Shown here piece by piece: positions 5,120-56,435 of a stretch of 64,000 bases of DNA. A program made the position numbers and the translations under genes. The stretch's first letter is position 1, and the number at the start of each line of letters is the position of its first letter. Source of the DNA: Candidatus Xenobia bacterium (GTDB lineage: Bacteria > Vulcanimicrobiota > Xenobia > Xenobiales > QWHO01); NCBI GenBank assembly GCA_045863235.1, contig BTUM01000016.1, positions 53,527-117,526 of the forward strand, in the 5' to 3' direction. The notes beneath the pieces are model-generated. The model saw only the letters and a program-made list of their open reading frames with translations, was not told the DNA's origin and did no database searches.

Positions 5120-5152
5120 TTTCAGCTCCCTTTCAGCCACCCGGACCATCAT
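5120..5152 (+). promoter_or_regulatory. TTTCAG-N5-TTTCAG promoter element, copy 1
   Basis: TTTCAG ctccc TTTCAG, N10, CATCAT, N6, ATG 5159. Confidence 0.7.
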
Positions 5153-5158
5153 GCATGC

Positions 5159-6424
5159 ATGATCACGTCGGTCTCGGGCAATGCCACGGCCACCTGGCTC
5201 CAGCCCATCCACTGCGCCCAGGTCGAGGGCCAACCCGACCGGTTCGAGCCCAGCGAGCCGGCCCCGCTCAAGATCTGGTTGCTGCACGGCAGCTACACCG
5301 GCGGTCACGCCTCGGCCGCTCGCTCGGTCAAAGAAGCGCTGCAGGAGCAGTGTCCCGAGGCCCAGGTCGAGATCATCAACCACGCCGACCTTTCCAAAAA
5401 CCCGATGCCGTTCTCCACGGCCGCCGAGAAGGCGCTGGAAGGTGGCGCCATCCGCCAGACGGTGCGCAACTGGGGGTTCGAGCGCAACTTCGAAGGCGAC
5501 CCGCTGCAGAAATGGTGCGCCCGCCAGGGCATGAAGGTGGAGGCCTTTCTTACTGACAGCCTGCTCGAGCGCATCCAGAACGAGCAGCCGGACGTGCTGG
5601 TGGCCACCCAGGCGCCGACCGCCGACATGCTGAGCTACTGGAAAGAGAACCAGGAGTTTGCCGCCCCGCTGCACGCTGTTGTAACCGACTTTGGAGCCCA
5701 CCAGATTTGGAGCCAGGAGGGCGTTTCGCGCTACTATGTGGCCGCCGAGAGCACCCGGGGTGATCTGGAGCGCTTTGGCGTCGACACCAGCCAGGTATCT
5801 GTCACCGGAATCCCCATCCGACCAGCCTTCGCTCGCCCTCCTCAGGACCGGGCTGAGATGAAGAAGAAGCTGGGCCTGGACCCTGAAAAGCCGTTCGTGC
5901 TGGTTCTGGGAGGCGCCCTGGGAGCCGTCAACTTCAACAAGACCGTGGGAGCCCTCGATGATCTCCCCTGCGACTTTCAGATCGCGGTGGTGTGTGGCAA
6001 GAACGAAGCGGCGCGCAAGGCACTGGAGGCGGATACCTTCAGCCATCCCGTGCAGGCGCTGGGGTTCGTGGACAACATGGTGGACTACCTGGACGCCTGC
6101 GACCTGATCGTTTCCAAGCCCGGCGGCCTCTCCACCTCGGAGATCCTGGCCCGGGGTCGGGCCATCCTGATCCTCGACCCCATCCCGGGGCTCGAGACGC
6201 AGAACGCCAGGCGCCTCACCCAGGCCGGAGTAGGGCGCTGGGCCAGCGATCTCACGGACATGGGCAAGCACGCCCTGGAGTTGCTCGGGAGCCCGGACAA
6301 GCGGGCCGAGATGGAGAAAGCCGCCCAGGCCATGGGCCGTCCCAACTCGGCCGCCGACGCAGCTTCGCAGATTCTGGCGGCCGGCTGGGAGCACCGCGAG
6401 CGGCTCTCCACCAGCGCCATCTGA
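5159..6424 (+). CDS. MGDG synthase / UgtP-like glycosyltransferase (GT28 C-terminal domain) with N-terminal extension
   Basis: GGHASAA, PDVLVAT, VVTDFGAHQIW, VTGIPIRPAF, GFVDNM, SKPGGLSTSE, PIPGLETQNA. Confidence 0.88.
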   Translation: MITSVSGNATATWLQPIHCAQVEGQPDRFEPSEPAPLKIWLLHGSYTGGHASAARSVKEALQEQCPEAQVEIINHADLSKNPMPFSTAAEKALEGGAIRQTVRNWGFERNFEGDPLQKWCARQGMKVEAFLTDSLLERIQNEQPDVLVATQAPTADMLSYWKENQEFAAPLHAVVTDFGAHQIWSQEGVSRYYVAAESTRGDLERFGVDTSQVSVTGIPIRPAFARPPQDRAEMKKKLGLDPEKPFVLVLGGALGAVNFNKTVGALDDLPCDFQIAVVCGKNEAARKALEADTFSHPVQALGFVDNMVDYLDACDLIVSKPGGLSTSEILARGRAILILDPIPGLETQNARRLTQAGVGRWASDLTDMGKHALELLGSPDKRAEMEKAAQAMGRPNSAADAASQILAAGWEHRERLSTSAI

Positions 6425-6805
6425 TCAACCAGCCGCCAACCGATCGAGATAGACGTGCAACTGCCCCATGACCTCCTGGGCCTGCAAGAAGGTCCGCACG
6501 CAGTTCGCCATGGCTTCCTCGGAGGGATTGGCCACGTATTCCCCCAGCGCATCCACCGCGATCTGGGAGATGTCCAGGGCCGTGCAGGTCATTCTCTGCT
6601 GCTCCTCAAGGGCCTCGCGCACCTCCTCGGGACCGGTGATGGAGGTGACCGCTGCGCGGGACTCGCGCAACTCGGCGGCCAGGGCGTCCTGGTAAGTGAC
6701 CAGGGCGTCGGCCGGCAGGCGCCCCTCGTGGACCTCCTTGAGGGCCGAGAGCAGCGACGCAAAGCTGGGATGCTCGAGATCGACCGGAGCGCTCTGGTAG
6801 CTCAT
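6425..6805 (-). CDS. Small alpha-helical hypothetical protein coupled to the upstream amidase-like gene
   Basis: ATGA overlap with 6802..7593; acidic helical sequence. Confidence 0.6.
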   Translation of the reverse strand: MSYQSAPVDLEHPSFASLLSALKEVHEGRLPADALVTYQDALAAELRESRAAVTSITGPEEVREALEEQQRMTCTALDISQIAVDALGEYVANPSEEAMANCVRTFLQAQEVMGQLHVYLDRLAAG

Positions 6806-7593
6806 TTCGTGTAGTAGATCCCGCTGTTGGGGTCTTTGTTGCGCTCAGAGATCACCTGGTGGCCGGGCCGATCATTGTTGGAGCCGATGGTGCGGGTGCC
6901 GCCGGCGGCGGTAACGAGCTCCACGTGCCCGCGCGAGTGATTCATCCAGACGTCGCCCGGCTTGGCCTGGCTGGCCGGAATCCGGCGCCAGCCCTGCTTG
7001 ATGAGGGCCTGCTCCATCGACTTGACGTTGACGTGATGGCCCTGCAGCTTGCCGGTGTTCTCCAAGAGCGAGCTGACAAAGTCGGCGCAATTGTTGGTCT
7101 GGCCGCCTGCGGCCGTGAATTTGGGCAGCTTGCCCTTGATGTCGATCGAGTTCTGGCCGATGAACTTTCGGCCCAGCTCGACCGCGTCGTTGCCGGAGTT
7201 GCCGCTAGGGGTCACGCTGCCAGCGCTGCCGGTGCTGCCCGAGCTGCCCACGCCCGAAGGAGAGCTCCCCCCACCACCGCCGCCTCCGTTATTGAAGAGG
7301 GGCACGCCGGCCAGGCCGCCGGGAGCGATCCCGCTCTCGGAGGTGGCTCCCCCGCTGCCGCAGTTGGCGCAGCCTCCCCCGCCGCCCATTGCGCCCGACT
7401 GGCCGACCATCAGTCCCATCAGCATCCCGATCAGGTACTGCTGCATGTTGTACTGCTGCATCATAGCGCCATCGAGTCCCATCGGGCCGCCCAGGCGATT
7501 GACCGCCGCCCCCAACCCCATGGGCGCGTAACCGCTCATTTGGCTGAGATCTCCGGGGCCGCCCAGGGCCGTCAGTGCAGTGAGTGGGTCCAT
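6802..7593 (-). CDS. Gly/Met-rich N-terminus fused to a CHAP/NlpC-P60-like (papain-like) amidase domain
   Basis: C-terminal NNCADFVS..AKPGDVW..GHVELV..IGSN pattern (Cys/His dyad); AAGGAGG RBS; no Sec signal. Confidence 0.7.
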   Translation of the reverse strand: MDPLTALTALGGPGDLSQMSGYAPMGLGAAVNRLGGPMGLDGAMMQQYNMQQYLIGMLMGLMVGQSGAMGGGGGCANCGSGGATSESGIAPGGLAGVPLFNNGGGGGGGSSPSGVGSSGSTGSAGSVTPSGNSGNDAVELGRKFIGQNSIDIKGKLPKFTAAGGQTNNCADFVSSLLENTGKLQGHHVNVKSMEQALIKQGWRRIPASQAKPGDVWMNHSRGHVELVTAAGGTRTIGSNNDRPGHQVISERNKDPNSGIYYTK

Positions 7594-7699
7594 CGGTCAA
7601 CCTCCTTGTCGTGTCTGCATCTTACCACCTCGAGCAGGGCTCCCCCAAGTGGGCAGGTTAAGAAAATGAAACCGATGTGAATTGTTTGTATCCGACTTG

Positions 7700-7875
7700 C
7701 GAACAGGGGAGGGCGCCAGTTGGCGAGAAGTGGGCCATGCGTCGGGAGTTCGGGAAGCCGGTGAGAATCCGGCACGGTTGCCGCCACTGTAAGCGAGGAG
7801 TCCGGAAGCGCCACTCTCCCGAGGGGAAGGCCTTCCAGGAGGGCACGGATCCGCGAAGTCAGGAGACCGGCCCGG
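7700..7875 (+). ncRNA. Cobalamin (B12) riboswitch
   Basis: Core elements GGGAA-GCCGGTGAGAATCCGGC-ACGG..GCCACTGTAA, GCCACT..GGGAAGG and the B12 box AGTCAGGAGACCGGCC, directly upstream of a BtuFCD-type transporter. Boundaries approximate. Confidence 0.9.
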
Positions 7876-7953
7876 CGCGCGACCAGCGGCCCCCTCCGGA
7901 CAAGAGGCGGGCAGGGCGCCGCTGAGCCTGGAAGAGAGGCAGGGCGCCCCGAA

Positions 7954-8748
7954 ATGCGGTTCCTGAGCGCGCTGATCGCGCTGACTCTGCTTTGCGGCTG
8001 CGCCTCCCCACCCCGAGCCTCCTCCGGGCCGGCCCAGCGCATCATCAGCCTGGTGCCCAGCCTGACCGAGGTCCTGTTTTCGCTGGGTGCCGGACCGCGC
8101 GTGGTCGGCGTGACGGCCAACGACCACTATCCCCCCGAGGTGGAGGAACTGCCCCGGGTGGGCGACATGGCCCCCGACTACGAGCGCATCCTGGCCCTGC
8201 AACCCGATCTGGTGGTGGCCGACCCGGGCATGCAGCCGCGTGAGATCACCCGCCTGCGCGAGCTCGGGCTGCCGGTCCTGAGCCTGCCCTCCCAGAGCCT
8301 GCAGGGTCTGCAGCGAGCCCTCGTCGAGTTGGGCAAGGCCACCGGCACCGAGGCCCGCAGCCGGGAGCTGCAGAGCCAGCTGGCAGGCCTGAAACCGCCC
8401 ACCGGACCGGGAGTGCGAGTTTTCGTGGAAATCTGGGACAAACCGCTCATGACCACGGGGGGCGGCACGTTCGTGGACGAGCTGATTACCCTGGCCGGAG
8501 GTCGCAACGTCTACGCCGACCGCAAGCAGTACCCCAGCATCAGCGTGGAAGACCTGCTGCTACGCCAGCCCGAGGTGATCGTGCTGACAGTGAGCCGGGT
8601 GGAGGAGGCCCGCTCCCGCCCCGGCTGGGATCGCCTGGCCGCCGTGCAGAGCGGACGGGTGTACCGCATGGAGTCAGACCTCCTGGTGCGGCCCACCCTG
8701 CGGCTCCCACGAGCTGTGGAGCAGTTGGAAGGCTTTCTGAGACCATGA
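7954..8748 (+). CDS. btuF: Cobalamin ABC transporter substrate-binding lipoprotein
   Basis: Lipobox LCGC; RIISLVPSLTEVLFSLG, GGGTFVDELITLAGGRN; downstream of B12 riboswitch. Confidence 0.85.
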   Translation: MRFLSALIALTLLCGCASPPRASSGPAQRIISLVPSLTEVLFSLGAGPRVVGVTANDHYPPEVEELPRVGDMAPDYERILALQPDLVVADPGMQPREITRLRELGLPVLSLPSQSLQGLQRALVELGKATGTEARSRELQSQLAGLKPPTGPGVRVFVEIWDKPLMTTGGGTFVDELITLAGGRNVYADRKQYPSISVEDLLLRQPEVIVLTVSRVEEARSRPGWDRLAAVQSGRVYRMESDLLVRPTLRLPRAVEQLEGFLRP

Positions 8749-9701
8749 TCGCCCGCCTGGGGGGCGTGATGCTGGCTGGATTGCTGGGGCTGGCCGTCTG
8801 CCTGGTACTGGCCGTCTCGCTGGGCAGCGTAAGCATCAACCTGCTCGACCTCAACGACGTGAGCCGGGCCATCCTGCGCGACATCCGCCTGCCGCGAGCG
8901 CTGCTGGGAGCCTGCGTGGGCGCCTGCCTGGCCAGCGCCGGGGTGGCCTTCCAGGCTCTCTTGCGCAACCCGCTGGCCGACCCCTACGTGGTGGGCGCCA
9001 GCTCGGGGGCGGCCCTGGGGGCGGCCCTGGCCATCCTGCTGGGACTCACCGCCGTGCTGCCCCTGGCCGCCTTCGCCGGGGCCGTGGGAGCCATGCTGTT
9101 CATCGTGCGCCTGGCCCGTATCGGAGGCGCCCTGCCGGTGGACACGTTCCTGCTGGCGGGCGTGGTGGTGGGATCGTTCCTCTGGTCGCTGGTGAGCTTC
9201 ATGCTCACCATGGCCCGCCAGGACATGGCCCGCATCGTGTTCTGGCTCATGGGCAGCCTGGCCGATGCGCGCTGGAGCCAGCTGCCGCTCATCCTCCCCT
9301 ACCTGGTTCTGGGCCTGGGCGGGCTCTACTATGCGGCCCTGAGCCTGAACCTGCTGACCCTGGGCGAGGAGGCGGCCATCCCCCTCGGGCTGCCGGCCGA
9401 GCGCGCCAAGCTGTGGGTCTTGCTGGCGGCCACCCTGCTGACCGCGGCGGCCGTCTCGGTGAGCGGGCTGATCGGTTTTCTGGGTCTGATCGTGCCCCAT
9501 CTTTGTCGGGGCCTGGTCGGGCCCGACCATCGCCTGTTGCTGCCTGCGGCCGCCCTTGGGGGGGCCATGTTCCTGGTCTTGTGCGATACCCTGGCACGCA
9601 GCCTGCGCTCCGGCCTGGAGCTGCCGGTGGGCGTGATCACCGCCCTGTTGGGGGCGCCATTCTTCTTCTGGCTGCTCTACAGCCGCCGGAGGCTTACGTG
9701 A
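8745..9701 (+). CDS. btuC: Cobalamin/iron-chelate ABC transporter permease (FecCD family)
   Basis: IRLPR, RNPLADPYVVGASSGA, GLIGFLGLIVPH, ELPVGVITALLGAPFF. Confidence 0.88.
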   Translation: MIARLGGVMLAGLLGLAVCLVLAVSLGSVSINLLDLNDVSRAILRDIRLPRALLGACVGACLASAGVAFQALLRNPLADPYVVGASSGAALGAALAILLGLTAVLPLAAFAGAVGAMLFIVRLARIGGALPVDTFLLAGVVVGSFLWSLVSFMLTMARQDMARIVFWLMGSLADARWSQLPLILPYLVLGLGGLYYAALSLNLLTLGEEAAIPLGLPAERAKLWVLLAATLLTAAAVSVSGLIGFLGLIVPHLCRGLVGPDHRLLLPAAALGGAMFLVLCDTLARSLRSGLELPVGVITALLGAPFFFWLLYSRRRLT

Positions 9702-10489
9702 GCCTGCGCGGCTCGGACCTGACCTGCAGCTACGGCTCCACCCTGGCCCTGAACAAGGTGTCCTTGCAGCTCGAGCCGGGCGAGCTGGTGGGAATTCTGG
9801 GGCCCAACGGCTCGGGCAAGTCCACCCTGCTCAAGGTGCTGGCCGGGGTGCTGCTCCCTGCCAGCGGACAGGTGCTGCTGGAGGAGCGGCCCCTGAGCGA
9901 TTACCGGCGCCGCGAGCTGGCCTGCCGGCTGGCCTACGTCCCTCAGCAGGTGGAGCTGCCCTTTCCCTTTCGCTGCCGTGAGCTGGTCATGATGGGGCGC
10001 TACGCCCGCATGCGCGGCCCGGGACTGCAGGAGGGCGCCCACCTGGAGGCGGTGCGGCAAGCCATGCGGGCAACCGGGGTGGAAGCGCTGGCCGAGCGAC
10101 GCTTCGGCGAGCTTTCGGGGGGAGAGGCCCAGCGCGTGCGCATCGCCCAGGCCCTGGCCCAGGAGGGCCAGACGATGCTGCTCGACGAGCCCACCTCCCA
10201 CCTGGACGTGGCCTTCCAGCTAGAGCTGATGGGACTGCTGTCCTCCCTGGCGGCCCGGGGACAGGCTCTGGCGGCTTCCCTGCACGACCTCAACCTGGCG
10301 GCTCTGTTCTGCCACAGGCTGGTGCTGCTGAAGGCCGGCCAGGTGGTAGCTTCCGGCGTCCCGGCCGAGGTCCTTACGGTGGAGAGGCTCGAGCAGGCCT
10401 TTGGGGTGCGGTTGGAGGTGCAGCCCGGTCCCCCGGTCCGGGTCTTCGCCAGGAATCCGGAGCCGGTTGGGGAAACGCCGGCGCTATGA
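9698..10489 (+). CDS. btuD: Cobalamin/iron-chelate ABC transporter ATPase
   Basis: GTG start overlapping the permease stop; GPNGSGKST, LSGGEAQRV, LLDEPTSHLD, HDLNLA. Confidence 0.88.
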   Translation: MSLRGSDLTCSYGSTLALNKVSLQLEPGELVGILGPNGSGKSTLLKVLAGVLLPASGQVLLEERPLSDYRRRELACRLAYVPQQVELPFPFRCRELVMMGRYARMRGPGLQEGAHLEAVRQAMRATGVEALAERRFGELSGGEAQRVRIAQALAQEGQTMLLDEPTSHLDVAFQLELMGLLSSLAARGQALAASLHDLNLAALFCHRLVLLKAGQVVASGVPAEVLTVERLEQAFGVRLEVQPGPPVRVFARNPEPVGETPAL

Positions 10490-11715: not shown

Positions 11716-11734
11716 GGAGGAGCTGAGACGGGCT

Positions 11735-11772: not shown

Positions 11773-11783
11773 CCCGCCCTGAA

Positions 11784-15970: not shown

Positions 15971-16003
15971 AGTCTGCACTCCGAGGCTGAAAAAAACCTG
16001 AAA
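15971..16003 (-). promoter_or_regulatory. TTTCAG-N5-TTTCAG promoter element, copy 2
   Basis: TTTCAG gtttt TTTCAG, N10, CAGACT, N8, ATG 15962. Confidence 0.72.
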
Positions 16004-16090
16004 TGGCCTGCCCGCCCACGCCAGAGTCCGACCAGGATCGCGCGAGCGCTGAACAGGACTCCAGCTCCCGCTCCTCCAACCACCACCCTC

Positions 16091-22538: not shown

Positions 22539-22571
22539 AGTATGCGCGGGCCCGCTGAAGAGAAGCTGAAC
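22539..22571 (-). promoter_or_regulatory. TTTCAG-N5-TTTCAG promoter element, copy 3
   Basis: GTTCAG cttct CTTCAG, N10, CATACT, N8, ATG 22530. Confidence 0.68.
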
Positions 22572-25627: not shown

Positions 25628-27385
25628 TTACCCTGCCACGAGCTCTCCGGCCAGCCAGGCGCGCAAAGCGGCCGGGTACCAGTCCCAGGTCCCCTCGAAG
25701 CGGGCCGCCAGCGACTGAAGGCCATGCTCGCGCAACTCGCCAGCCAGCTCGGCGCGGCGCTCGGCAAAGCCGCTGGAGAGCTGCTCGGTGCCAAAGTGCA
25801 CGCTCTCCTCGCACAATCCCCAGGCTTTGCGCACCAGGGCCGCCAGCGGGTCGGCCGGGGGGTCCAGGGCGATCAGGGGTAGATCCCAATCGGGGGCGGG
25901 CTCCTCCAGATCGGGCACCACCACGCGGTCGGGGGTGCGGAAGGCGACCGGCTCGAGCACCAGGTCGCCCGCCTCGTGGCGCAGAAAGCCGCTCACCTGG
26001 ACGGCCGACGGCAAGCCCCGGGCCAGCGCGTCCAGAGCGCCGGGCACGGCCCCCTCGTAGGCTCGCGCGATGCGCACCTCCTCCCCCTCCGGCAGGACGG
26101 CGCTGGCCACGATCTCCTGCTCGCCCGGGGCGTAGGCTACCTCCACCTCGGCCAGGCTCAGCACCACGAAGTCCTCGGCCAGAACCAGGGGGCGCAGCAG
26201 GCGCGGCGGGCGGGGAGGAAACTCGAGCGACTGCAGCGACTCGGGCAGCGACTCCCAGGCCTGGCCCAGGGGCATCACCGAGTGCTTGCTCTTCTCGCGC
26301 CTCAGAGTCAGGCTGCGGTTGGCGTGGCGGCGCACGCCCTGGCTGACCAGCTGGCCCCGGGCCAGGTCGCGCAGGCGCACGTCGCCGGCCAGAGTGACTC
26401 CCGGACCGGTGTAGGCGCGCTCGAGAACCAGCACCTGGCCGGCCGGGTCGGCCAGGTAGAGCCGTACCCGATCACCCTGAATGCGGGCGCCCAGCGAGAT
26501 CAGTCGCAGGTGGTCGAGTTCGGTCTCGGGCGCGGTGTCCTGGCCCAGCACGTAGGTAGCCGACAGCTCGCTCACACCGGCCAGGCGGGTCCGCAGGCTG
26601 AGCAGGGCAAAGGCCGCCTCGCCCACCTTGTAGCGACCCGAGCTGGCTTTGTAAAGCGCGAGCTGCTCTTGCAGGCTGTCGAGCAAGACCAGCGGCCAGG
26701 TCATGCCCGCCAGCTGCCGGCGAGCTCTCTCGAACTGGGCCTCCAGGCCTTCGGCGTGGACGACCCCTTCGCGCAACAAACGCTCGCTCAGGGCCTCTAC
26801 GGCCGAAAGCTCGTGGCGGCGGGATCGGGTGGCGCCGAACTCGACCGTCTGCTGACCCTGGCGGGCAGCCCAGACGGCCAGGGCCAGGTGCGCGCAGGCT
26901 CCCTTGTCAGCGCAGTCGCAGCGAGCCATGGAAAGCTCGCGGGGCACAAGAAAGCGCACCGAGCAGGTGGGCAGGCGCACGGCGGCGCCCTCCACCTGGG
27001 CCCGAAAGCCCTTCGCCAGCAAGGCCCGGGCTTTCTCCAGCAGGCGCTTGCCCAGAAAGCGCTCCAGCTCCTCGTCGCCGATCTCACCCGGACTCCAGGG
27101 CACTTCGTCCGGGGCCTCGCCTCGCGGGTAAGCCAGGGCCACCGCCACCCGGTGGCGGCAGACGGTGGTGGCGAGGCAGGTGCAGTTGCCCTGAGCCAGG
27201 CTCTTGCCGGGCGGCAGCGTGGCCACCACGCCGTCCTCGAAGATTCCCCGCACGGTGCCGTCGGGGTCTTCTTCCAGGCGCGGGCCCCTGCCCTCCTCAA
27301 TCTCGCGGGTGGCCCGCTTGACCAGCCCCATGTTGGACAGAGCCGCGATCGCCTCCGGGGTCAGGGCGGCCAGGTCGCTGCGCAT
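25628..27385 (-). CDS. SWIM zinc-finger protein (YehQ-like)
   Basis: Two CxC-x4-CxH motifs (CTCLATTVCRH, CDCADKGACAH); ALSNMGLVKRA N-terminus. Confidence 0.75.
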   Translation of the reverse strand: MRSDLAALTPEAIAALSNMGLVKRATREIEEGRGPRLEEDPDGTVRGIFEDGVVATLPPGKSLAQGNCTCLATTVCRHRVAVALAYPRGEAPDEVPWSPGEIGDEELERFLGKRLLEKARALLAKGFRAQVEGAAVRLPTCSVRFLVPRELSMARCDCADKGACAHLALAVWAARQGQQTVEFGATRSRRHELSAVEALSERLLREGVVHAEGLEAQFERARRQLAGMTWPLVLLDSLQEQLALYKASSGRYKVGEAAFALLSLRTRLAGVSELSATYVLGQDTAPETELDHLRLISLGARIQGDRVRLYLADPAGQVLVLERAYTGPGVTLAGDVRLRDLARGQLVSQGVRRHANRSLTLRREKSKHSVMPLGQAWESLPESLQSLEFPPRPPRLLRPLVLAEDFVVLSLAEVEVAYAPGEQEIVASAVLPEGEEVRIARAYEGAVPGALDALARGLPSAVQVSGFLRHEAGDLVLEPVAFRTPDRVVVPDLEEPAPDWDLPLIALDPPADPLAALVRKAWGLCEESVHFGTEQLSSGFAERRAELAGELREHGLQSLAARFEGTWDWYPAALRAWLAGELVAG

Positions 27386-28515
27386 CAAGCCGAGACCCGC
27401 TCGCCGATCCAGGCGGCCAGCTGGCCCGGCGTCATGGCGCCCACATGGGCGCCCACGTCCACCAGCCGGCCGGCCAGCTCCTTGTCATAGATCGGCTCGG
27501 CTCCCTCGTCCAGGGCGGCCAGCCCCAGCACCGTGGTACCCTGCTCGCACAGGCCTTTGACGGTGCGCACCAGGCGCTGGGCGTCTCCCCCCTCGAAGAA
27601 GTCGGTGATGAGCGCGATGATGGTGCGACGAGGGTTCTCCACCAGGCCGGCAGCAAAGTCCACCGCTTTGGCGATGTCGGTGCCCCCGCCCAGCTGCACC
27701 CGCATCAACAGCTCGACCGGGTCGGTGCAGTCGGCTGTCAGATCCACCACCTCGGTGGAGAAGACCGCCAGGTGCGTCTTCAGCATCGGCACCGACCAGA
27801 AGCAGGCGGCCGTGATGGCCGAGTGGATCACCGAGCCCAGCATGCTGCCCGACTGATCCACCAGCAGGATCAGCTGCCAGGCGGCCCGGTGGCGACGGCT
27901 GCGCTGGAAGAAGTAGGCCTTCTCGAGGTAGAGCTTGCGCGTCTCGGGGTCGTAATGCTTGAGGTTGGCCCGCACCGTGCGCTCGAGGTCGAGGTCGCGG
28001 GAGAACTTGAAGGGGGACGAGCGGGCGTTGCGACGCGGGCCCGAGAAGCTTTTTTGCACTTCGCGGGCCAGCTTCTCCATCAGCTCCTCGACCACTTTGC
28101 GCACCAGCTCGCGGGCCAGCTCGAGCACCTCGGGGTTCATCAGGTGGCGGGTCTTGAGCACCGCCTGCAGCAGCGTCTGGTTGGGCTGGACCCGCTTCAA
28201 GACCTCGGGATTGGTCACCACCTCGTCGATCTGGAAGCGCTCCACGGCGTCCTTCTCCAGCCGCTCGATCGTCTCGCGGGGAAACAGCGTGTGGACCTGG
28301 TTGATCCAGTCGGCCACCGAGAGCTGGGGCGCCTCCTGACCGCCCTTGCGCCCCGCCATGATGTCCCGCGACTTCAGGCCCGGGTCGCGGTTATAGAGCC
28401 AGGACAGAGCCGCATCGCAGGCCCCCTCCTCGCCCTGCAGGCAGCAACCGAGCTGGGGCTGGGAGGCCTCGCCCAGCACCAGGCGCCAGCGTACCAGGCC
28501 GTCCTCATAAGCCAT
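27385..28515 (-). CDS. VWA (CoxE-like) domain protein (YehP-like)
   Basis: Start ATG 28515 (MAYEDGLVRWRLVLG); MIDAS DQSGSM, GGGTDI, ITDFFEG. Confidence 0.85.
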   Translation of the reverse strand: MAYEDGLVRWRLVLGEASQPQLGCCLQGEEGACDAALSWLYNRDPGLKSRDIMAGRKGGQEAPQLSVADWINQVHTLFPRETIERLEKDAVERFQIDEVVTNPEVLKRVQPNQTLLQAVLKTRHLMNPEVLELARELVRKVVEELMEKLAREVQKSFSGPRRNARSSPFKFSRDLDLERTVRANLKHYDPETRKLYLEKAYFFQRSRRHRAAWQLILLVDQSGSMLGSVIHSAITAACFWSVPMLKTHLAVFSTEVVDLTADCTDPVELLMRVQLGGGTDIAKAVDFAAGLVENPRRTIIALITDFFEGGDAQRLVRTVKGLCEQGTTVLGLAALDEGAEPIYDKELAGRLVDVGAHVGAMTPGQLAAWIGERVSA

Positions 28516-30652
28516 AGCGCTCGATGGTCCTTTCCAACTCGGCGTCGAGCTGCATGCCGGCCGCCACCAGGGCGGGGTCCACCGCGTTGCGCAACAGCTC
28601 GAAGTTGGACTCCAGCCCGTAGAGCCGGGCCACGATGGCGGCCACGGCCTGGCGTTCGCGGGGAGGGAAGGCGGAAAAGGCCAGGCGCAGGCCCGGCAGG
28701 GCGCGCAGAAAGTCGGTTCGGTCCAGCCCCCTGAGCAGCTGATCGACCAGCCTGAGCAGACCCTCGGCCCGCTGCACCTCCTCGCGGGCCAGGGCAAAGA
28801 GGCCGGCCAGGAAGTCTCCCAGGGCCTCGGGGGGATGCAGGGCGCGCACGGCTTGCTCGGCCTCCTCCTCGCCGGGAACCAGCTCGAGCGACCAGAGGTA
28901 GCCCAGAGCGGCGCCCTGGCACACTCGGGGTGCGTCCTTGAGCCGCCTTCGCATGACCCCTTCAGCCAGCTCGCGCGCAAGCTCGAGCTCGCGGCCCAGC
29001 TTGTGCATGTCGCGCAGGGTGACCACCGCCTTGACGATGCCGGCGGTGGCGCCGTCCAGACCTTCGAAGAGCCACAGCCCGCGGGCGAAACCGGCCTGGA
29101 GGATGACTGGAAAGTCGGGTCCCAACTTCTGACGGTAGAGCCCGAAGAGGGTGCTCAGGGCACCGCCCAGGAGCTCCAGGTCGACCTCTGCCCCCAGCGC
29201 CCGGGCCACCTCCTGCACCAGCTCCCGGCCCAGCTCGGTGAGGCCGGCCCTCACGGCCAGGGCCAGGCAGGCCGCCAGGCCGACCGCATCCGTCTCGCCC
29301 GAGAGGGCCTGGCGCAGCACCCCGATGGCCGCCTGCTCGAGGTCGGAGCCGTAGGCCGAGGCCTCCACCAGGGCCGCCTCCAGGTCGAGGCTCTCCTGCA
29401 GCACCCAGGTCTCCTCCACCAGCTCCTCTGCCTTCAGGTGAAAGCCCGGCAGCCGCAGCAGGGCCAGGCGGCGCAGAAAGTAGCTTCTCTCCGTGCCCAC
29501 CTCGACCGTCACCTGGCGGGCCGGCCGGGTGGGCTTCAGCTCGAGCGCCTCCAGGGCGGCCAGCACCTCGTCCACCAGCGGCGGACGGGGCGTGCCGCCG
29601 GCCAGCTTGCCCACCCGCTTGCCCGAGAAGGCTGCCACCAGCTCCACCAGCACCGGGTCGGTGCCCGCCCCGAGTGTCCCCCGCCGGCTCCAGGGCAGCT
29701 CGCTCTGCAGGGCCTCCTTGACCAGAGCGCCCACCAGGCCGTCCAGCAGATCGGTGCGCATCGGGAAGTCGTGACCACGCAGCCGGGCCAGGCCGTGGGC
29801 CAGCGTGCTGGCCGCCACCAGGTCGGCTGAGGAGAGGGCCAGCTTCTTGTCGCGCAGGCGGTGGGTCACGTCGTGCAGGGCCCGGCGGGCGGCCTCGCCG
29901 GCCCCCGCCTCCCAGACGTGCTGGTAGTAGCCGGGCGAGGGCATACCGGCGTCGTAGCCCTGAAAACTGTCCAGCCGGTGGAAGCTGAAAGGCACCAGAT
30001 AGCTGCCGGTATCGCTGGCCGGCTCGAGCTCGGGCCACTCGGATCGGGGAAGGGCCTCTTCCAAGAAGGGCGCGTGGTAGCCTCCGCACACGGCCACCAC
30101 GCGGTCTTCATAGGTATGCCGGGCCCAGCCCAGGCAGGCGGCCATGTAGGCCTCGCGCTCGGCATCCTCGGGGCTGACGCTGGTGCGAATGGTTTGAAAA
30201 TAGCGCCGGAGGCGGTCTTCCAGGTCGTCTCCAGGATGTTCGAAGAGGTGGTCCCAGAGGCTGTCCGGGTCGTCGAAGCCCAGCTCGCGAGCCAGCTCGT
30301 CCTGGCCGGGCTCGCGTCGGTCGGCGTAACGGTTGGTGCGCTCGCGCATGGATTTGTGCCAGGCCGGCAGGTCCATGAAGCGCACATCGGCCCCCAGCTC
30401 GCGTCCCACCGTCAGGGCCACCCACTCGGGCGAGTAGGCGCAGAACGGCGTCCAGGCAGCGCACTCGCCCTTCTGGAAGCTGAACACGGCCAGGGGTAGT
30501 TGGTGGCCCAGGTGCAGCTCGTCCAGGCGGCCGTTGAAGTCGGACGGCCCTTCGATCAGCACGCAGGCCGGTCTGACCGCGCGCAGCACCCGCTCGACCA
30601 GACGGGCGCAGGCGGGGCTGTGATGGCGGATACCGAGGACCCTGGTCGCCAT
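28505..30652 (-). CDS. DUF5682 / YehM-like protein
   Basis: GIRHHSPACA, LIEGP.D, PFCAYSPEWVA, REAYMA, VCGGYH, GYDAGMPSPGYY. Confidence 0.8.
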   Translation of the reverse strand: MATRVLGIRHHSPACARLVERVLRAVRPACVLIEGPSDFNGRLDELHLGHQLPLAVFSFQKGECAAWTPFCAYSPEWVALTVGRELGADVRFMDLPAWHKSMRERTNRYADRREPGQDELARELGFDDPDSLWDHLFEHPGDDLEDRLRRYFQTIRTSVSPEDAEREAYMAACLGWARHTYEDRVVAVCGGYHAPFLEEALPRSEWPELEPASDTGSYLVPFSFHRLDSFQGYDAGMPSPGYYQHVWEAGAGEAARRALHDVTHRLRDKKLALSSADLVAASTLAHGLARLRGHDFPMRTDLLDGLVGALVKEALQSELPWSRRGTLGAGTDPVLVELVAAFSGKRVGKLAGGTPRPPLVDEVLAALEALELKPTRPARQVTVEVGTERSYFLRRLALLRLPGFHLKAEELVEETWVLQESLDLEAALVEASAYGSDLEQAAIGVLRQALSGETDAVGLAACLALAVRAGLTELGRELVQEVARALGAEVDLELLGGALSTLFGLYRQKLGPDFPVILQAGFARGLWLFEGLDGATAGIVKAVVTLRDMHKLGRELELARELAEGVMRRRLKDAPRVCQGAALGYLWSLELVPGEEEAEQAVRALHPPEALGDFLAGLFALAREEVQRAEGLLRLVDQLLRGLDRTDFLRALPGLRLAFSAFPPRERQAVAAIVARLYGLESNFELLRNAVDPALVAAGMQLDAELERTIERYGL

Positions 30653-33948: not shown

Positions 33949-33981
33949 TGCTTAGCAGTGGACCCTGAAAGAAAGCTGATC
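33949..33981 (-). promoter_or_regulatory. TTTCAG-N5-TTTCAG promoter element, copy 4
   Basis: GATCAG ctttc TTTCAG, N10, TAAGCA, N6, ATG 33942. Confidence 0.62.
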
Positions 33982-36039: not shown

Positions 36040-37125
36040 TCAGGGCAGGGCGTGCCGGGCGTCGAAGAACGCCTTCCAGAGCGGCCCGCGGCGCTTGGAA
36101 ATACGCTGCTCGAGGTAGCGCCGCAGGCGCTTGACGTCCTCGGCGTTGTCCTTGATGGCCGTTCCCAGGATGCACTCCATCAGGTCCTCGGGGTTGGCGG
36201 ACCGGCCGCCCAGGTAGTGGGCCCGGATGCCCACGGCGTGGGCCACCGAGACCGCCTCGGCGGTGGACATGGCGGTGCTGAGGCGCTCCAGAGCGTCGCC
36301 CTCGGGGGTCTTGCCTTCGCGCAACTCGCGGAACGTGGTCACCAGGATTTCCAGCAGGTCGCGCGGGGGTGCCTGGGGCACCCCCGAGCGCTGCAGGAGC
36401 TGAGCCGTCTCGCGCTCGACCAGCTCCAGCTCCACCTCACGGTCTGCGATGGGGAACACGGTTTCGAAGTTGAAGCGGCGCTTGAGAGCGGCGCTCATCT
36501 CGTTGGTGCCCCGGTCGCGGGTGTTGGCCGTGGCCAGCAGGTTGAAGCCCTCGCGGGCGTAGAGCCGGGTTTCCTCGCCCTCGAGCTCGGGCAGGAACAG
36601 CACCCGGTCGGACAACACCGAAAGCAGCGAATCCTGAATCTCGCTCGGGCAGCGAGTGATCTCCTCGAAGCGCACCACTTTGCCGTGCAGCATGCCGAGA
36701 TAGAGCGGAGCCGGCACCAGCGCCTTGCGGCTGGGCCCCTCGGCCAGCAGCAGGGCGTAGTTCCAGCCGTACTTGATCTGGTCTTCGGTGGTGGCGGCGC
36801 TGCCCTGGATGGTCAGGGTGGACTCGCCGCTGACGGCCGCGGCCAGAAGCTCGGACAAGAACGACTTGGCCGTGCCCGGCTCGCCCACGAGCAAGAGCCC
36901 GCGGTTGGTGGCCAGGGCCACCATGGCCCGATCCACCAGCGAGGGGTTGCCCACGAACTTGGGCCGGATCTTCTGTTTGGGATCGCCCAGAATGAAGCTG
37001 CGCACCGCCCGGGGCGAGAGGGCCCAACCGGGCGGGCGCGGGTCTTTGTCGCTCTTTCTCAGCCGGGCCAGCTCGTCGGCGTAGACCAGCTCGGCCGGAG
37101 GGCGCTGCAGGCTATCGGTGGACAC
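36040..37125 (-). CDS. MoxR-like AAA+ ATPase (YehL-like, AAA_5)
   Basis: Probable GTG start at 37125; GEPGTAKS, YGWNYALLLA, RFEEITR, TANTRDRGTNEMSAALKRRFNF. Confidence 0.85.
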   Translation of the reverse strand: MSTDSLQRPPAELVYADELARLRKSDKDPRPPGWALSPRAVRSFILGDPKQKIRPKFVGNPSLVDRAMVALATNRGLLLVGEPGTAKSFLSELLAAAVSGESTLTIQGSAATTEDQIKYGWNYALLLAEGPSRKALVPAPLYLGMLHGKVVRFEEITRCPSEIQDSLLSVLSDRVLFLPELEGEETRLYAREGFNLLATANTRDRGTNEMSAALKRRFNFETVFPIADREVELELVERETAQLLQRSGVPQAPPRDLLEILVTTFRELREGKTPEGDALERLSTAMSTAEAVSVAHAVGIRAHYLGGRSANPEDLMECILGTAIKDNAEDVKRLRRYLEQRISKRRGPLWKAFFDARHALP

Positions 37126-37164: not shown

Positions 37165-37197
37165 TGTCAGGCTCCTTTCAGCCGTCGGGCTTACACT
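37165..37197 (+). promoter_or_regulatory. TTTCAG-N5-TTTCAG promoter element, copy 5
   Basis: TGTCAG gctcc TTTCAG, N10, TACACT, N7, ATG 37205. Confidence 0.7.
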
Positions 37198-42682: not shown

Positions 42683-42715
42683 TGGATATCAGCTCAAGCT
42701 GAAAGAAAGCTGAAA
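42683..42715 (-). promoter_or_regulatory. TTTCAG-N5-TTTCAG promoter element, copy 6
   Basis: TTTCAG ctttc TTTCAG, N10, TATCCA, N9, ATG 42673; fills almost the whole intergenic gap. Confidence 0.7.
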
Positions 42716-50483: not shown

Positions 50484-50528
50484 ATGCGCTACTCCTCGAA
50501 TGGCTTACGGTTTGCCGCAGAGGATTCC

Positions 50529-51622: not shown

Positions 51623-51670
51623 AACTTGACGATGCCATACTCTTCGCTGTAAGAACAGAGACAGAAAACG

Positions 51671-51709
51671 CAAACTGTGTCGGTAACAGTTTGGCAACAA
51701 ATCAACTGT
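51671..51709. promoter_or_regulatory. Probable MocR-type operator
   Basis: Palindrome CAAACTGT-N7-ACAGTTTG plus a further AACTGT half-site in the divergent intergenic region. Confidence 0.6.
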
Positions 51710-51739
51710 ACCGGCTCTGCCGGGGAGGGAATAGGACGG

Positions 51740-53173
51740 ATGTCCCCAACCACCGAGCGCGAGCGGCTCTACGAGCAGGTCGCCCACAATATCGAGCACC
51801 TGGTCCAGACTGGCACCTTCAAGAGCGGCGAGCGCATCCCGTCGGTGCGGGTGCTGAGCAAGCAGATGGAGGTCAGCGTGACCACCGTGCTCGAGGCCTA
51901 CCGCATGCTCGAGGACCGGGGCCTGATCGAAGCCCGACCCCAGTCGGGCTACTACGTGCGGGCCGCCCGGCCCGAGCCGCCCGCCCCTCCCGAGCCGGAC
52001 GTTCCCCTGGAAGGCCCGCGCGAGGTCACGGTGGGAGAGCTGATCATGCGCTTTATCCGCGACCACCGGGACCGTTCCCGGCTGGCCCTGGGCGCGGCCG
52101 CCCCCAACCCCGAGCTGATGCCCACCCAGCGTCTGAACCGTTGCCTGGCCACGGTGGCCCGCAACCGGCCGCTGGATACGACCATGTACGAGTTTGCGCC
52201 CGGCTCGGAGGAGCTGCGCGTGCAGATCGCCCGCCGCATGCTCGACGCGGGCTGCGTGCTGAGCCCGGACGACATCGTGGTCACCAACGGCTGCCAGGAG
52301 GCCCTGGTGCTGGCGCTGCAGGCCACCTGCCACGCCGGGGAGGCGGTGGCGGTGGAGTCGCCCGCCTTCTACGGGCACTTCAAAGCCATCGAGATGCTGG
52401 GGCTCAAAGCCATCGAGATCCCCACCCACCCCGACACGGGGATCAGCCTGGACGCGCTGGAGTTCGCCATGAACCAGCACCCCATCAAGGCCGTGCTGTG
52501 TACTCCCTGCCACTCCAATCCGCTGGGCAGCCGCATGCCCGAAGAGTCCAAGGTCCGCCTGGTGGAGATGGCCACCGAGCGCGACATTCCGGTCATCGAG
52601 GACGACGTCTACGGGGATCTGTGCTTCGACCACCACCGCCCGCATGCCCTGAAGGCCTTCGAAAAGCAGCCCGGGCACGTCTTGCTCTGCTCGTCCTTCA
52701 GCAAGACCCTGGCCCCCGGCTATCGCATCGGCTGGGTGGTCACAGGGGAGCGCTTCCGCGATCGGGTGGAGCTGAGCAAGACCTTCACCAACCTGGCCAG
52801 CCCGGCTGCCACCCAGCTGGCCGTGGCCGAGTTCCTGGCCAACGGCGGCTACGACCAGCACCTGCGCCGGGTGCGCCGCATCTATGCCAGCCAGACCGCC
52901 CGGGTGGCCGACGCGGTGGGGCGGCTCTTTCCGGCTGGCACCCGCTGCACCCACCCGACCGGGGGCTTCGTGCTCTGGATCGAGATGCCGCGCCACGTGG
53001 ACGCGCTGGAGGTCTACTCGAAAGCCCTGCAGGAAGGCATCACCCTGGCTCCGGGCCACCTGTTCAGCACCAGTCCGCGTTTCAAGCACTTCATCCGGCT
53101 CAACACGGCCTACTGGTCCCCCCGGGTGGAGAGAGCCATCGAAACCATCGCCGGCATCGTGCACAAGGGCTGA
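51740..53173 (+). CDS. GntR/MocR-family PLP-dependent transcriptional regulator
   Basis: ATG 51740; [51 protein letters not shown]. Confidence 0.92.
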
Positions 53174-53220
53174 CCTGCGCACCCGGGAACTTTTCCTCCC
53201 GACGCGCTGTTGACCACAGC

Positions 53221-53691
53221 ATGAAGCAGACAATCGCATTTCTGGCTCTCACCGTGGCGCTGGTCGGGGCGACCATGGCCGAGCCCAGGTTCCCCGTCCA
53301 GAAGACCGACGCCGAGTGGAAAAAGCAGCTCACCCCCGAGCAGTACCGCATCCTGCGGGGCAAGGGGACCGAGATGTCCTGCCAGACCAACCCCATGATC
53401 TTGAGCAAGGAGCCTGGCCAGTTCCTGTGCGTGGGCTGCGGTCAGGTGCTGTTCGAGACGAAGGCCAAGTTTCAGTCCGGGACGGGCTGGCCCAGTTTCT
53501 ACCAGCCCTTCAAACCGGGCAGCGTGGTCAATGTGACCGACACCAGCCACGGCATGGTCCGCGTGGAGGTGCTCTGCTCGCGCTGCGGCGGGCACCTGGG
53601 CCACGTCTTTGAGGACGGCCCTCCGCCCACCGGGCTTCGCTACTGCATCAACTCGGTGTGCCTCAAGTTCGTGCCTGCCAAGAAGCCCTGA
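53221..53691 (+). CDS. msrB: Peptide-methionine (R)-S-oxide reductase with signal peptide
   Basis: [45 protein letters not shown]. Confidence 0.92.
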
Positions 53692-53766
53692 GTCGGTTGA
53701 GCCAACCCGTCCTGATTCGGCCCTTGAGGGAATGAGCTGCCCGACGCGGAATGCGCCAGGGCAAGC

Positions 53767-54897
53767 ATGGTCGTGACCCCCCACCCCGAGCTCGATGACT
53801 TTCCCCGCCTGACGGGCCAGGAGGCCCTCTGGCCCTACCTGCTGGCGTCAGCCTTGCTGTTCGTGCTGGGGCTCTACCTGATCATCACGCCGGGCACGAC
53901 CGGGCCGCAGGCTGCGCGAGATCGAGCCCCGATCGAACGACTCGGGCTGAACGCTCCCCAGCCTCGGGCGAAGGGCAAAAGGACGCTTCGCCTCGGCTTT
54001 CTGCCCGGAGCCACCTTCGAGCGCACGCTGCAAGAGCTGGCGGCCGACCTCGAGCAGCGCACCGAGGGGCGCATCGAGTTGCTCCCCATGCCAGGCTTCA
54101 GCCTGGAGGGACGCACGCTGGGCGAGCTCGAGCTGGTCAACCTGGTCTCGCTGGGCCGCCTCGAGATGGCGCTGTGCACCACCGCCCCCCTGTCGAATTA
54201 CAACTCTCGTTTCGAGGTGCTGGAGCTGCCCTTCTTGCTGGAGACCTACGAGCAGGCCGATCGTCTGCTTGACGGTCCCGTGGCCGAGCGCCTCAACCAG
54301 GGCCTTGAGCGCCACCAGCTCAGAGGACTGGGCTATCTTGAGATCGGCTTTCGCATCATCTCCAGCCGGGTTCCCATGCCCGGCGTGGACGACTTTCGCG
54401 GCCAGCGGTTGCGCGTGATGGAAAGCCGGACCAGCCTGCACCTGGCCCGCGCCCTGGGAGCCGAGGGAGTCGCCTGTCCGCCCGACAGGGTCTACGCCAT
54501 GAGCCGGGACAAGACCATCGAGGGCTCGGATCGAACCCTGCCCAGCTACTGGGCCTCCAAGCTGTATGAGGTGCAGCCCTACATCACCGAGACCCGGCAC
54601 ATGTACTCGGCCAAGGCCATCCTGATCAACGAGCTGGCCTATGACAGCCTCTCGCCCGAGGACCAGCAGGCCCTGTCGCAGGCCGTGGAGCGGGCCGAAA
54701 GAGGCCATCGCCAGCGGCAGCGAGCCGAGGAAGAGGAGGTCCGACGACGCTGCCAGGAGCGCGGCATCACCCTGTTCACCCTCAGCCCGGCCGAGCGCGA
54801 GAAGTTCCGAAAGTTGTGCCAGCCCCTCTACGAGGAGTTCGAGCAGAGCGGCGAGACCGGACTGCTGCAAGAGATCCGAACGCTCACCCGGCCCTGA
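53767..54897 (+). CDS. TRAP transporter substrate-binding protein (DctP-like) with N-terminal TM anchor
   Basis: LEQRTEGRI, LELPFL, GFRII, DFRGQRLRV, KLYEVQPYITETRH, YDSLSPEDQ. Confidence 0.8.
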   Translation: MVVTPHPELDDFPRLTGQEALWPYLLASALLFVLGLYLIITPGTTGPQAARDRAPIERLGLNAPQPRAKGKRTLRLGFLPGATFERTLQELAADLEQRTEGRIELLPMPGFSLEGRTLGELELVNLVSLGRLEMALCTTAPLSNYNSRFEVLELPFLLETYEQADRLLDGPVAERLNQGLERHQLRGLGYLEIGFRIISSRVPMPGVDDFRGQRLRVMESRTSLHLARALGAEGVACPPDRVYAMSRDKTIEGSDRTLPSYWASKLYEVQPYITETRHMYSAKAILINELAYDSLSPEDQQALSQAVERAERGHRQRQRAEEEEVRRRCQERGITLFTLSPAEREKFRKLCQPLYEEFEQSGETGLLQEIRTLTRP

Positions 54898-55117
54898 GAG
54901 CGTTCATCACGGAACGATCCGGCGGGGTCGCTCATGATCAGAGTCGAAAACCACACGAGGAGGGCAGTTACGCCATCGAGCTCTTCGGCCAGCTCGGCAC
55001 GGTGGCGGTCTGCGTGATCCACTTCCAGCTCGCCCCGCTCGATCCGGTCGCCGGGGTCGATCCCGTTGGCCTGAGCCCGTCAGCCCCTTGAGCTTCGTCG
55101 CATGGATGCGACGAAAC

Positions 55118-56353
55118 TCAAGGCGTCTTCTGGGCCTGCAGGTAGGGGCAGTTCCGGTTGGCGCCCGCCGTGCGGTAAGCGGCCAGCCGGGCCCGGTTGA
55201 GCTCGCCCCAGGGCCGCAGGACTTCGCGGTCGGCGGCCTGGCTGTGGGGCTCCTTGTTCTTCCAGACCGAAAAGCGAGTCTGCTCGGCCAGGTCGGCCTG
55301 CCGCCTGGCCTCGGCTGAATCGCTCTGGCGGGGGATCACGATCTCGCCCGCCGTCACCCAGGGCCCGCTCCAGCTCTCGCGGGCGTCGTAGGGGTCGTCC
55401 CCGGGCTGCATGAACTGAAGCTCCAGGCGCCAGCGCGTGTCTTTCTGGCTGGCCCGCTGCTCCATCTCGCTGGCCTGCCGCTCGGAAGAGGTGGCCCCCC
55501 TGCTCGCAAGGGGCGTGGCATCCCCTTCGGGGACTGCCCGCAGCTTGACCAGGTATTCCTTGCCATCCTTGCCCTGCAGGGCAAAGGGGGCCCGGCTCCA
55601 GGCCGTGAGGCCGGCCAGGCTGTCGAGCTCGGTGCGCATGCGCTTGACATCCATCAGCATCTTGACCCCGCTCAACGGGCCCACCTCGCTGGCGATCCGA
55701 CCCAGGCCGACCAGCTTGTTGGGATGGTTGATCATGTTGAACAACGCCAGCTGGGCCTCGGCGTCGCGGGCCTGGGAAACCTCGGTGAGCGGGCTGCCTC
55801 CGGTCAGCAGGATGTCGGTGGCCTGCCCGTCCGTCCCGTAGAGCTCGAGCGCCATGCCGAACATGCTGGCCCCGTCCGGGCCCGGCTCGTTGCTGGCGTC
55901 GGAGAAGCGGATCAAGCCCTCCTGCCGGTCCTCACTGAAGAACTGAAAGCGATTCTTGAGAGCGGGATTCCAGTGCACCTCGACCCCACTGCCAAAGAGC
56001 TGCTGGCGGTGCACCGGCCGGCTCATTCCGGGAGTCCCCTCGACCTCGGCCTGGCGGTGCTGCAGCCCGGTGATCTCGCGCCGGGTCTGATCGTCGAACA
56101 GCACCGCCTCCTGCCCGCTGCGGCTGTTCTCGGGCACGTCTGTGACGGCGGTGGCCAGCACCGGAGCGAGATCCCCCCAGACCAGGGTAGGCTGGCTGAC
56201 CGGCAAGCTCAGGACCGGCTTCGCAGAGAGCTGGCGACGGGGCTCTGTCGCGTAGCGCTCTACCTGCTGCAGGGCGTCCAGCTCGGCGGGCGCGCTGGGA
56301 ACCGGGCCCAGGCCGCGAAATGATGTGGACGGGGGAAACAGGTTGACTTGCAT
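55118..56353 (-). CDS. Catalase-related heme protein (hydroperoxide-metabolising type) with N-terminal extension
   Basis: Start ATG 56353; RPVH distal His, IRFSDAS, GMALEL, LELQF, RPWGELNRARLAAY proximal Tyr. Confidence 0.7.
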   Translation of the reverse strand: MQVNLFPPSTSFRGLGPVPSAPAELDALQQVERYATEPRRQLSAKPVLSLPVSQPTLVWGDLAPVLATAVTDVPENSRSGQEAVLFDDQTRREITGLQHRQAEVEGTPGMSRPVHRQQLFGSGVEVHWNPALKNRFQFFSEDRQEGLIRFSDASNEPGPDGASMFGMALELYGTDGQATDILLTGGSPLTEVSQARDAEAQLALFNMINHPNKLVGLGRIASEVGPLSGVKMLMDVKRMRTELDSLAGLTAWSRAPFALQGKDGKEYLVKLRAVPEGDATPLASRGATSSERQASEMEQRASQKDTRWRLELQFMQPGDDPYDARESWSGPWVTAGEIVIPRQSDSAEARRQADLAEQTRFSVWKNKEPHSQAADREVLRPWGELNRARLAAYRTAGANRNCPYLQAQKTP

Positions 56354-56362
56354 GGCGCCCTC

Positions 56363-56395
56363 ATCCAAGCTTTGCCCCCTGAAAGAACTCTGAAA
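56363..56395 (-). promoter_or_regulatory. TTTCAG-N5-TTTCAG promoter element, copy 7
   Basis: TTTCAG agttc TTTCAG, N10, TTGGAT, N9, ATG 56353. Confidence 0.68.
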
Positions 56396-56401
56396 GGCGC
56401 T

Positions 56402-56435
56402 TTTCAGAGATCTTTCAGGTTCCCCAGATTACCTT
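56402..56435 (+). promoter_or_regulatory. TTTCAG-N5-TTTCAG promoter element, copy 8 (back to back with copy 7)
   Basis: TTTCAG agatc TTTCAG, N11, TACCTT; AAAGGA RBS and ATG 56469. Confidence 0.68.

Follow-up and report, generated by a model that had tools for sequence, protein, structure and literature searches.

We report that the direct repeat TTTCAG-N5-TTTCAG, of which eight copies lie in a 64,000-nucleotide stretch of a Candidatus Xenobia bacterium (assembly GCA_045863235.1, contig BTUM01000016.1, positions 53,527 to 117,526 of the forward strand; hereafter the window), belongs to a genome-wide set of about 350-370 sites rather than to the eight-copy regulon described in an earlier note on this DNA. 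The box is very probably an activator site lying over the -35 region of predicted promoters, and the genes behind it probably make up a large set of likely cargo of a flagellum-derived type III exporter encoded in the same genome. Sites and genes of the window are given in window coordinates; G000 denotes the host genome (8.36 Mb, 66% GC, 97.6% complete), other G numbers its relatives, and C numbers the contigs of G000.

A genome-wide set of predicted promoters

Pairs of TTTCAG occur 56 times in G000 at a spacing of 11 and at most three times at every other spacing up to 40, and 54 of the 56 exact pairs are noncoding. Scanning noncoding DNA with a 33-bp position weight matrix (PWM) gives 371 sites at 14 bits or more, compared with 12 in the reversed sequence, and 351 compared with 4 at 16 bits. 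The strand and position bias seen in the window is present throughout the genome: a same-strand start codon lies within 150 nt of 306 of the 351 strong sites, and a -10-like hexamer, YAnnnT, stands at offset 10 in 255 of 409 sites found with a matrix of the box only, and in 1-14 at other offsets. The hexamers are of the type TAnnCT. Among the 342 genes assigned to a box, the start codon is 22 nt past the repeat in 118 and 20-26 nt past it in 246, indicating that most are leaderless. A Shine-Dalgarno-like site precedes just 15 of 249 leaderless box genes as opposed to 60 of 93 leadered ones. With the modal ATG (offset 22) taken as +1, the hexamers would fall at about -39..-34 and -28..-23. TTG at -35 is found in none of the 351 box promoters and in 35 of 232 box-less ones, a difference that is partly by construction, as the box fills that place. 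The geometry proposed in the earlier note as typical of activators (11-bp direct repeats, a fixed distance to the -10 and no consensus -35) is therefore borne out. For this uncultured class it provides a code by which promoters can be read, and it fixes hundreds of start codons.

Exact pairs were found in 32 of 41 relatives. Genomes of the genus have 25-60 of them, those of family f2 have 4-49, f4 has 7 and the small-genome family f3 has 0-6, whereas reversed-sequence controls gave 0-2. The box is conserved across several families of class Xenobia (Vulcanimicrobiota). When the -10 is required as well, matches remain in 43 of the 151 phylum genomes, and counts above 7 occur only within the class. 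At 20 out-of-class loci that we read, 14 matches had no open reading frame (ORF) and none of the other six ORFs was type III-like (T3-like), and we take such matches as mostly due to chance.

Box-gene products and a flagellum-derived export machine

Products of the box genes begin M-[QIN]-[IV]-x-P, are rich in Ser, Pro and Ala and poor in Leu at residues 5-25, and often show D-x-[VF] further on. We compared 218 box genes with 200 box-less leaderless genes after collapsing families. Ile or Val occupies residue 3 in 105 of the former and 36 of the latter, [DE]x[VF]x[LI]S is found in 19 and 2, and a Sec-like helix, by a crude hydrophobicity test, in 13 (6%) and 50 (25%), respectively. All three rules for Pseudomonas syringae type III substrates, which according to their source are not strictly required (PMC3338616), are satisfied by 23 of the 218 and 6 of the 200, or by 38 of 246 and 6 of 232 without dereplication (p 8e-7). 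Given residues 1-40, a classifier of the N-terminus reached a cross-validated area under the curve of 0.82, as opposed to 0.59 for residues 41-80. It scored 46 of 92 held-out leadered box genes above 0.7, compared with 6.4% of other genes. Extensions of at least 25 amino acids over paralogs are present in 14 of 33 box proteins and 11 of 73 controls; ahead of ordinary enzymes they often measure 40-100 residues, an arrangement that we liken to that of type III substrates. The link between box and N-terminus recurs in G013, and at 30 loci from G015, G040, G030 and G039, seven of them without an ORF call, 14 of the 23 ORFs have a T3-like N-terminus.

A Pfam scan of 132 of the 342 box proteins (threshold 1e-5) found no family in 91. 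The remainder include beta-propellers, proteases, a nuclease, acyltransferases, GDPD, adenosine and cytidine deaminases, PPK2 and DeoC, and the domain often begins at residue 50-120. An internal hydrophobic helix is predicted in 129 of 324 non-Sec box proteins, as against 23% and 19% in two controls.

The export core, MS/C ring and rod genes of a flagellum are present in G000, with an export operon on contig C27 (Table 1). FlhA, FlhB, FliP/Q/R, FliI and FliF reach the flagellar cut-offs and miss those of the Sct proteins; for example, FlhA scores 814.6 with its flagellar profile (cut-off 772) and 616.5 with the SctV profile (cut-off 692). In contrast to this basal inventory, neither flagellin, FlgK/L, FliD, MotA/B nor the P- and L-ring proteins FlgA/H/I were found in the 97.6%-complete G000, and tblastn with FliC, FliD, FlgK/L, MotA/B and FlgA/H/I of G013 gave no match there. 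Flagellin was detected in 8 and FlgI in 7 of 41 genomes, G000 being in neither set. FlhA of the C27 type is matched in 39 of 41 relatives, mostly at 75-95% identity (64-100% in most relatives), whereas the eight flagellin-bearing genomes hold a separate FlhA at 43-48% identity, which indicates that the C27 cluster is a second system and not a decayed flagellum. CesT-type chaperone families were matched nowhere in G000 and weakly in 2 of 41 genomes, and no control genome matched either. Apart from the main operon, the contig end C74:1-3983 carries flgF, flgG, flgJ-like, fliK-like, FlhB-like and partial fliA genes; C80, C3, C1, C106 and C107 encode five proteins that match only the cytoplasmic part of FlhA/SctV (FHIPEP); and genus g4 has an additional stand-alone FlhA of 62-68% identity (L218:11640-13700 of G007; also G017, G023 and G035).

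Behind the export operon are three copies of an 81-amino-acid helical protein that resembles the HrpA/HrpE pilins by ESM features (0.91, 0.90 and 0.88). The HrpA_pilin hidden Markov model (HMM) matches 14 of 40 members of this family, the best with an E value of 4e-4. The protein is modeled as one long helix, and no fold match was found among solved structures. The family is multicopy. Of the 151 phylum genomes, 43 contain it, with no member found in 81 genomes of family f14 or in the six of genus g4. Wherever this locus is present in the genus (four genomes), the third copy lies behind a box. At the pilin position of genus g4 (L217:17522-17728, G007) there is a 68-amino-acid protein with no Pfam match that is unrelated by HMM to the 81-residue family. 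A homologue in a genome labelled Bryobacterales sits among unrelated genes.

Given these features, we favor the explanation that the box regulon is a large likely cargo set of the flagellum-derived exporter, a reading we consider probable from sequence. Two winged-helix protomers of the OmpR or SARP type would bind the hexamers head-to-tail at about -39..-34 and -28..-23 and recruit RNA polymerase with the housekeeping sigma factor in place of a -35 element. Translation would mostly start from the first bases of the transcript, and the unstructured N-termini may serve as signals for export by the C27 apparatus, which would build a Hrp-like pilus rather than a flagellum. Hydrolases, enzymes acting on nucleotides and lipids, and membrane-inserting proteins could in this way be delivered to prey or surroundings. 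More tentatively, Xenobia may have made, independently of the known injectisomes, a second injection device from a flagellar basal body, with a Hrp-like pilus and, in large-genome lineages, several hundred effectors. It is conceivable, with no greater confidence, that about half of those effectors sit under the TTTCAG box.

Several observations weigh against this explanation. Neither the export operon nor, for the most part, the pilin genes carry the box: it precedes just one of eight pilin-like paralogs, and outside the genus no pilin-like gene has a box above 14.2 bits. Genus g3 retains the export machine (10 of 10 genomes) yet has only 0-2 exact boxes. The pilin similarity itself is under Pfam's threshold, and no secretin was found in the export cluster, the three in G000 being on other contigs. 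Only 11-15% of box genes satisfy all three type III rules, the classifier gives the rod proteins FlgB/C/F/G and FliE just 0.00-0.15 (only the proteins resembling FlgJ, at 0.93, and FliK, at 0.78, score high), and ordinary MFS, FKBP, PilZ and carD genes are among those with a box. The same N-terminus is found in 164-387 box-less genes, which are enriched for a GTAACA/TTCACA motif, so that no more than about half of the putative cargo would lie behind the box. Finally, no canonical RpoD motif was found in the assembly, implying that genes, perhaps including that of the activator, are missing from it. We conclude from these observations that the box labels some of the likely cargo of large-genome lineages, and not the machine.

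A second motif, GTAACA/TTAACA/TTCACA, in part with an 11-bp period, is present in noncoding DNA of G000 (for example at C27:57050-57100 and C27:79250-79700). It is enriched upstream of the box-less genes with T3-like N-termini, occurs also near flgB and the first pilin copy, and is possibly a second tier of control.

The best-surviving alternative, which we nonetheless consider unlikely, is that the box defines a lifestyle regulon of global scope, for attack phase, surface or stress, under an OmpR or SARP activator untied to type III export, the N-termini being old 5' leaders that became coding when leaderless promoters arose. Random GC-rich frames would be expected to be rich in Ala, Pro and Arg as well, but the signature is lacking in box-less leaderless genes and is found in half of the leadered box genes (46 of 92), and codons 6-30 of box genes have coding-like GC content at third positions (0.80 versus 0.81). 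The box-less export operon, the carD, PilZ, FKBP and MFS members, and the few sites in other classes, which precede ordinary exported proteins or nothing, are all compatible with such a regulon, although it would not predict the near-absence of Sec signals.

Quite improbable, in our view, is that the cargo is correctly read and the machine secretes only into the periplasm or medium, without delivery by a pilus. The basal-body exporter of Buchnera offers a precedent. Consistent with mere secretion, there is no L or P ring and no secretin in the cluster, and the 81-residue family was not found in genus g4, though a different protein occupies its position there. However, the pilin-like family is multicopy and conserved across 43 of 151 phylum genomes, the substrates of many cargo enzymes are cytoplasmic, and internal hydrophobic helices are more frequent among non-Sec box proteins (129 of 324) than in the controls.

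The earlier note left the choice between one activator and an alternative sigma factor acting on scattered genes. The activator geometry stands, while a sigma factor is less likely because the -10 of box promoters resembles that of box-less leaderless promoters, and the genes are not a random scatter. A group-2-like sigma factor with altered region 4.2 is encoded at C30:52185-53195, and together with the missing RpoD motif could suggest that the repeat itself is read by an alternative sigma factor; this is very unlikely, as direct repeats one helical turn apart are the published form of OmpR and SARP sites, and 35 of the 232 box-less promoters with the same -10 retain TTG at -35. An ordinary Pho regulon can be dismissed. 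It would share the 11-bp period, G000 encodes a PhoB-like regulator that is nearly invariant and has a PAS kinase next to it, and some box genes act on phosphate compounds (GDPD, PPK2, CHAD); yet the majority of targets are unrelated to phosphate, and the check for boxes at pstS/phoU found no PhoU or PstS family in the 97.6%-complete G000, with 13 of 14 control genomes positive.

If the cargo reading is true, the box is a search key for a very large type III-like substrate set in one genome, and we know of no larger one. The results also point to a conserved exporter of flagellar descent, with a pilin-like gene, that annotation files as "flagellar", and bear on the origin of injectisomes from flagella. 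A predatory lifestyle has been proposed for Ca. Eudoremicrobiaceae (PMC9259500), on which they bear too; a second injection device, if real, would supply a molecular basis for it and a list of effectors that can be read off directly. One FlhA in the Eudoremicrobium supplement is called T3SS_sctV by TXSScan with the verdict "no_decision", and its scaffold also holds flgB, flgC and fliE (PMC9259500). From this gene content we take the scaffold to carry the same export cluster.

Boxes and neighboring features of the window

All eight repeats are at the coordinates given in the earlier note, counted from the repeat itself: five are exact (5120+, 15987-, 42699-, 56379- and 56402+), 37165+ has one mismatch, and 22555- and 33965- have two each. 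Five exact boxes compare with 0.00 expected, and none of 100 shuffles reached this. Each of the eight is intergenic and faces a gene, and they score 25-34 bits with the genome PWM; the sole further match in the window, at 10.3 bits, is inside a gene. Seven of the downstream hexamers are as previously described, whereas the eighth, reported as TACCTT, belongs to an 11-nt register and reads TTACCT at exactly 10 nt (Table 1). The ATG is indeed 22-25 nt past the repeat in seven cases (22, 24, 24, 22, 23, 25 and 25) and 50 in the eighth. The four proposed start corrections, from longest-ORF starts at 16079, 22956, 37118 and 56368 to 15962, 22530, 37205 and 56353, hold as well, and a codon model trained without the motif chooses the identical four shortened starts. 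For the peroxidase gene the start at 56469 follows from box geometry, the codon model having picked 56733. Contigs from four RNA runs, one of them extending across both promoters, cover the two divergent genes in fragments and are uninformative as to starts.

Table 1. Boxes and box genes of the window, with the export operon of contig C27
Position	Strand	Feature
5120..5152	+	Box TTTCAG-N5-TTTCAG, 10 nt, -10 CATCAT; 28.1 bits
5159..6424	+	Leaderless gene; MGDG-synthase-like glycosyltransferase, Pfam domain from residue 50, 38-aa extension relative to paralog
15971..16003	-	Box, 10 nt, -10 CAGACT; 34.3 bits
14967..15962	-	Near-leaderless gene; 331 aa, no Pfam family
22539..22571	-	Box GTTCAG-N5-CTTCAG, 10 nt, -10 CATACT; 25.0 bits
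21397..22530	-	Near-leaderless gene; PQQ-type beta-propeller from residue 49
33949..33981	-	Box GATCAG-N5-TTTCAG, 10 nt, -10 TAAGCA; 25.5 bits
33103..33942	-	Leaderless gene; 279 aa, no family in Pfam or ESM Atlas
37165..37197	+	Box TGTCAG-N5-TTTCAG, 10 nt, -10 TACACT; 28.9 bits
37205..38356	+	Leaderless gene; PQQ-type beta-propeller
42683..42715	-	Box, 10 nt, -10 TATCCA; 28.8 bits
41960..42673	-	Near-leaderless gene; M48 peptidase domain from residue 77
56363..56395	-	Box, 10 nt, -10 TTGGAT; 28.3 bits; back to back with box 56402..56434
55118..56353	-	Near-leaderless gene; 411 aa, no Pfam family; G015 homologue (51% identical) likewise behind a box
56402..56434	+	Box, 10 nt, -10 TTACCT; 29.1 bits
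56469..58925	+	Leadered gene with Shine-Dalgarno-like site; TPR and animal-type haem peroxidase
C27		Export operon: flgB flgC fliE fliF fliG fliH fliI fliJ slt, rod/hook-like gene, fliM fliN fliN fliO fliP fliQ fliQ fliR flhB flhA

Within the 5' part of the peroxidase frame, at 56510-56619, is an element of about 110 bp with two inverted hairpins, resembling repetitive extragenic palindromes, of which there are 30 near-full and 50 partial-or-full copies genome-wide. Diverging from box 5120 is a box-less gene (4518-5018, minus strand) with a strong T3-like N-terminus and no Pfam match. Other features of the window include a cobalamin riboswitch (7751-7869, plus strand) before a periplasmic-binding/FecCD/ABC operon, and MoxR-type AAA, DUF5682, VWA-CoxE and SWIM genes at 25628-30652 and 36040-37125 (minus strand), a MoxR-VWA chaperone-like set interrupted by other genes.

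Candidate activators and comparison with known systems

Two candidates for the activator stand out in G000, where no strong autoregulatory box was found upstream of OmpR, SARP-like or sigma genes. The OmpR-type, CiaR-like regulator C4:32828 may be the activator, and is the candidate we put first; its recognition helix, VVEVHISSLRQKL, is close to VVEVYVSKVRKKL of streptococcal CiaR. Relatives turned up in every genome tested (8 of 8 and 5 of 5), frequently with several paralogs per genome, and the motif-less G006 carries only a YVC variant. For group-B OmpR genes, G000 shows a weak pair, and 2 of 26 loci have boxes on the opposite strand where the gene begins. The SARP-type regulator C19:72632 is a more doubtful candidate, and some other regulator is equally so. 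C19:72632 has the domain order REC-HD-TPR-wHTH-BTAD and matches the AfsR structure 8hvr (E value 2.4e-4). It is single-copy, its helix is identical in 19 of 20 loci, and it is present in 16 of 16 f2 genomes and 5 of 5 genomes of g8/g9 and f4. It was found in none of the 14 genomes of g3, g6 and g7, nor in the motif-rich G001 and G003 (90% and 64% complete). These occurrence profiles are only leads, because kin are not independent and small genomes shed many regulators.

SARP-like (wHTH-BTAD) regulators number about 20 in G000, and in many of them a REC domain comes first. One of the SARP type with an FHA domain, C115:2270, has AfsR-like T/R residues and was rejected, being found in only 5 of 41 genomes. 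In G000, G004, G013 and G025, arrays of 2-6 half-sites precede a CarD paralog (G000:C30:67126-67620; L213:11355-11846). We rejected carD as a core member or binder, since box arrays occur only in those four genomes and 18 of 20 other carD loci have none.

A literature search, with most subscription journals outside its reach, returned no description of the motif, of the cargo set or of this reading of the cluster. Among known regulators TtsI belongs to the OmpR family. The rhizobial tts-box consensus parses as CGTCAG-N5-CGAAAG-N10-TA, and thus has equal spacing, a similar first half-site and a T-rich spacer; it governs type III genes together with scattered effectors (PMC9320238). The TTTCAG box differs in its near-identical half-sites, its number of about 350 sites, an export operon without a box and a flagellar-type machine. 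The Salmonella HilA box, TTTCAT-N5-TTTCAT, is one base off, lies further upstream and controls type III genes.

The streptococcal CiaR box TTTAAG-N5-TTTAAG, also 10 nt from its -10, is recognized by the helix VVEVYVSKVRKKL (PMC3091779). It differs from the TTTCAG box by one base per half-site with equal geometry, whereas CiaR governs 15 promoters of envelope and competence genes and not secretion cargo (PMC3091779). The afs box bound by AfsR consists of two 11-bp repeats at -40..-19, with TTCAGC at -38..-33 and the -10 CACTGT (PMC10936776), a register equal to that of the TTTCAG box. By our reading of the helix, the base-contacting T88 and R92 of AfsR are A and H in C19:72632, whose SARP module is, unlike that of AfsR, C-terminal behind REC, HD and TPR domains. 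SARPs mostly govern antibiotic clusters, unlike the TTTCAG box.

Similar to non-flagellar type III secretion systems with a Hrp pilus, the predicted system described here has an export core without motor or filament, a putative pilin-like subunit, and dispersed effector-like genes under one promoter motif. Unlike them, its components in G000 score as flagellar and its cluster has no secretin. G000 also keeps FlgB/C, FliE and FliG, in contrast to the intermediate systems of Myxococcales, which are without them (Abby and Rocha 2012, PMC3459982). The regulatory logic is already known from the tts box; what is new is its scale, its leaderless form and its probable coupling to a flagellum-derived exporter.

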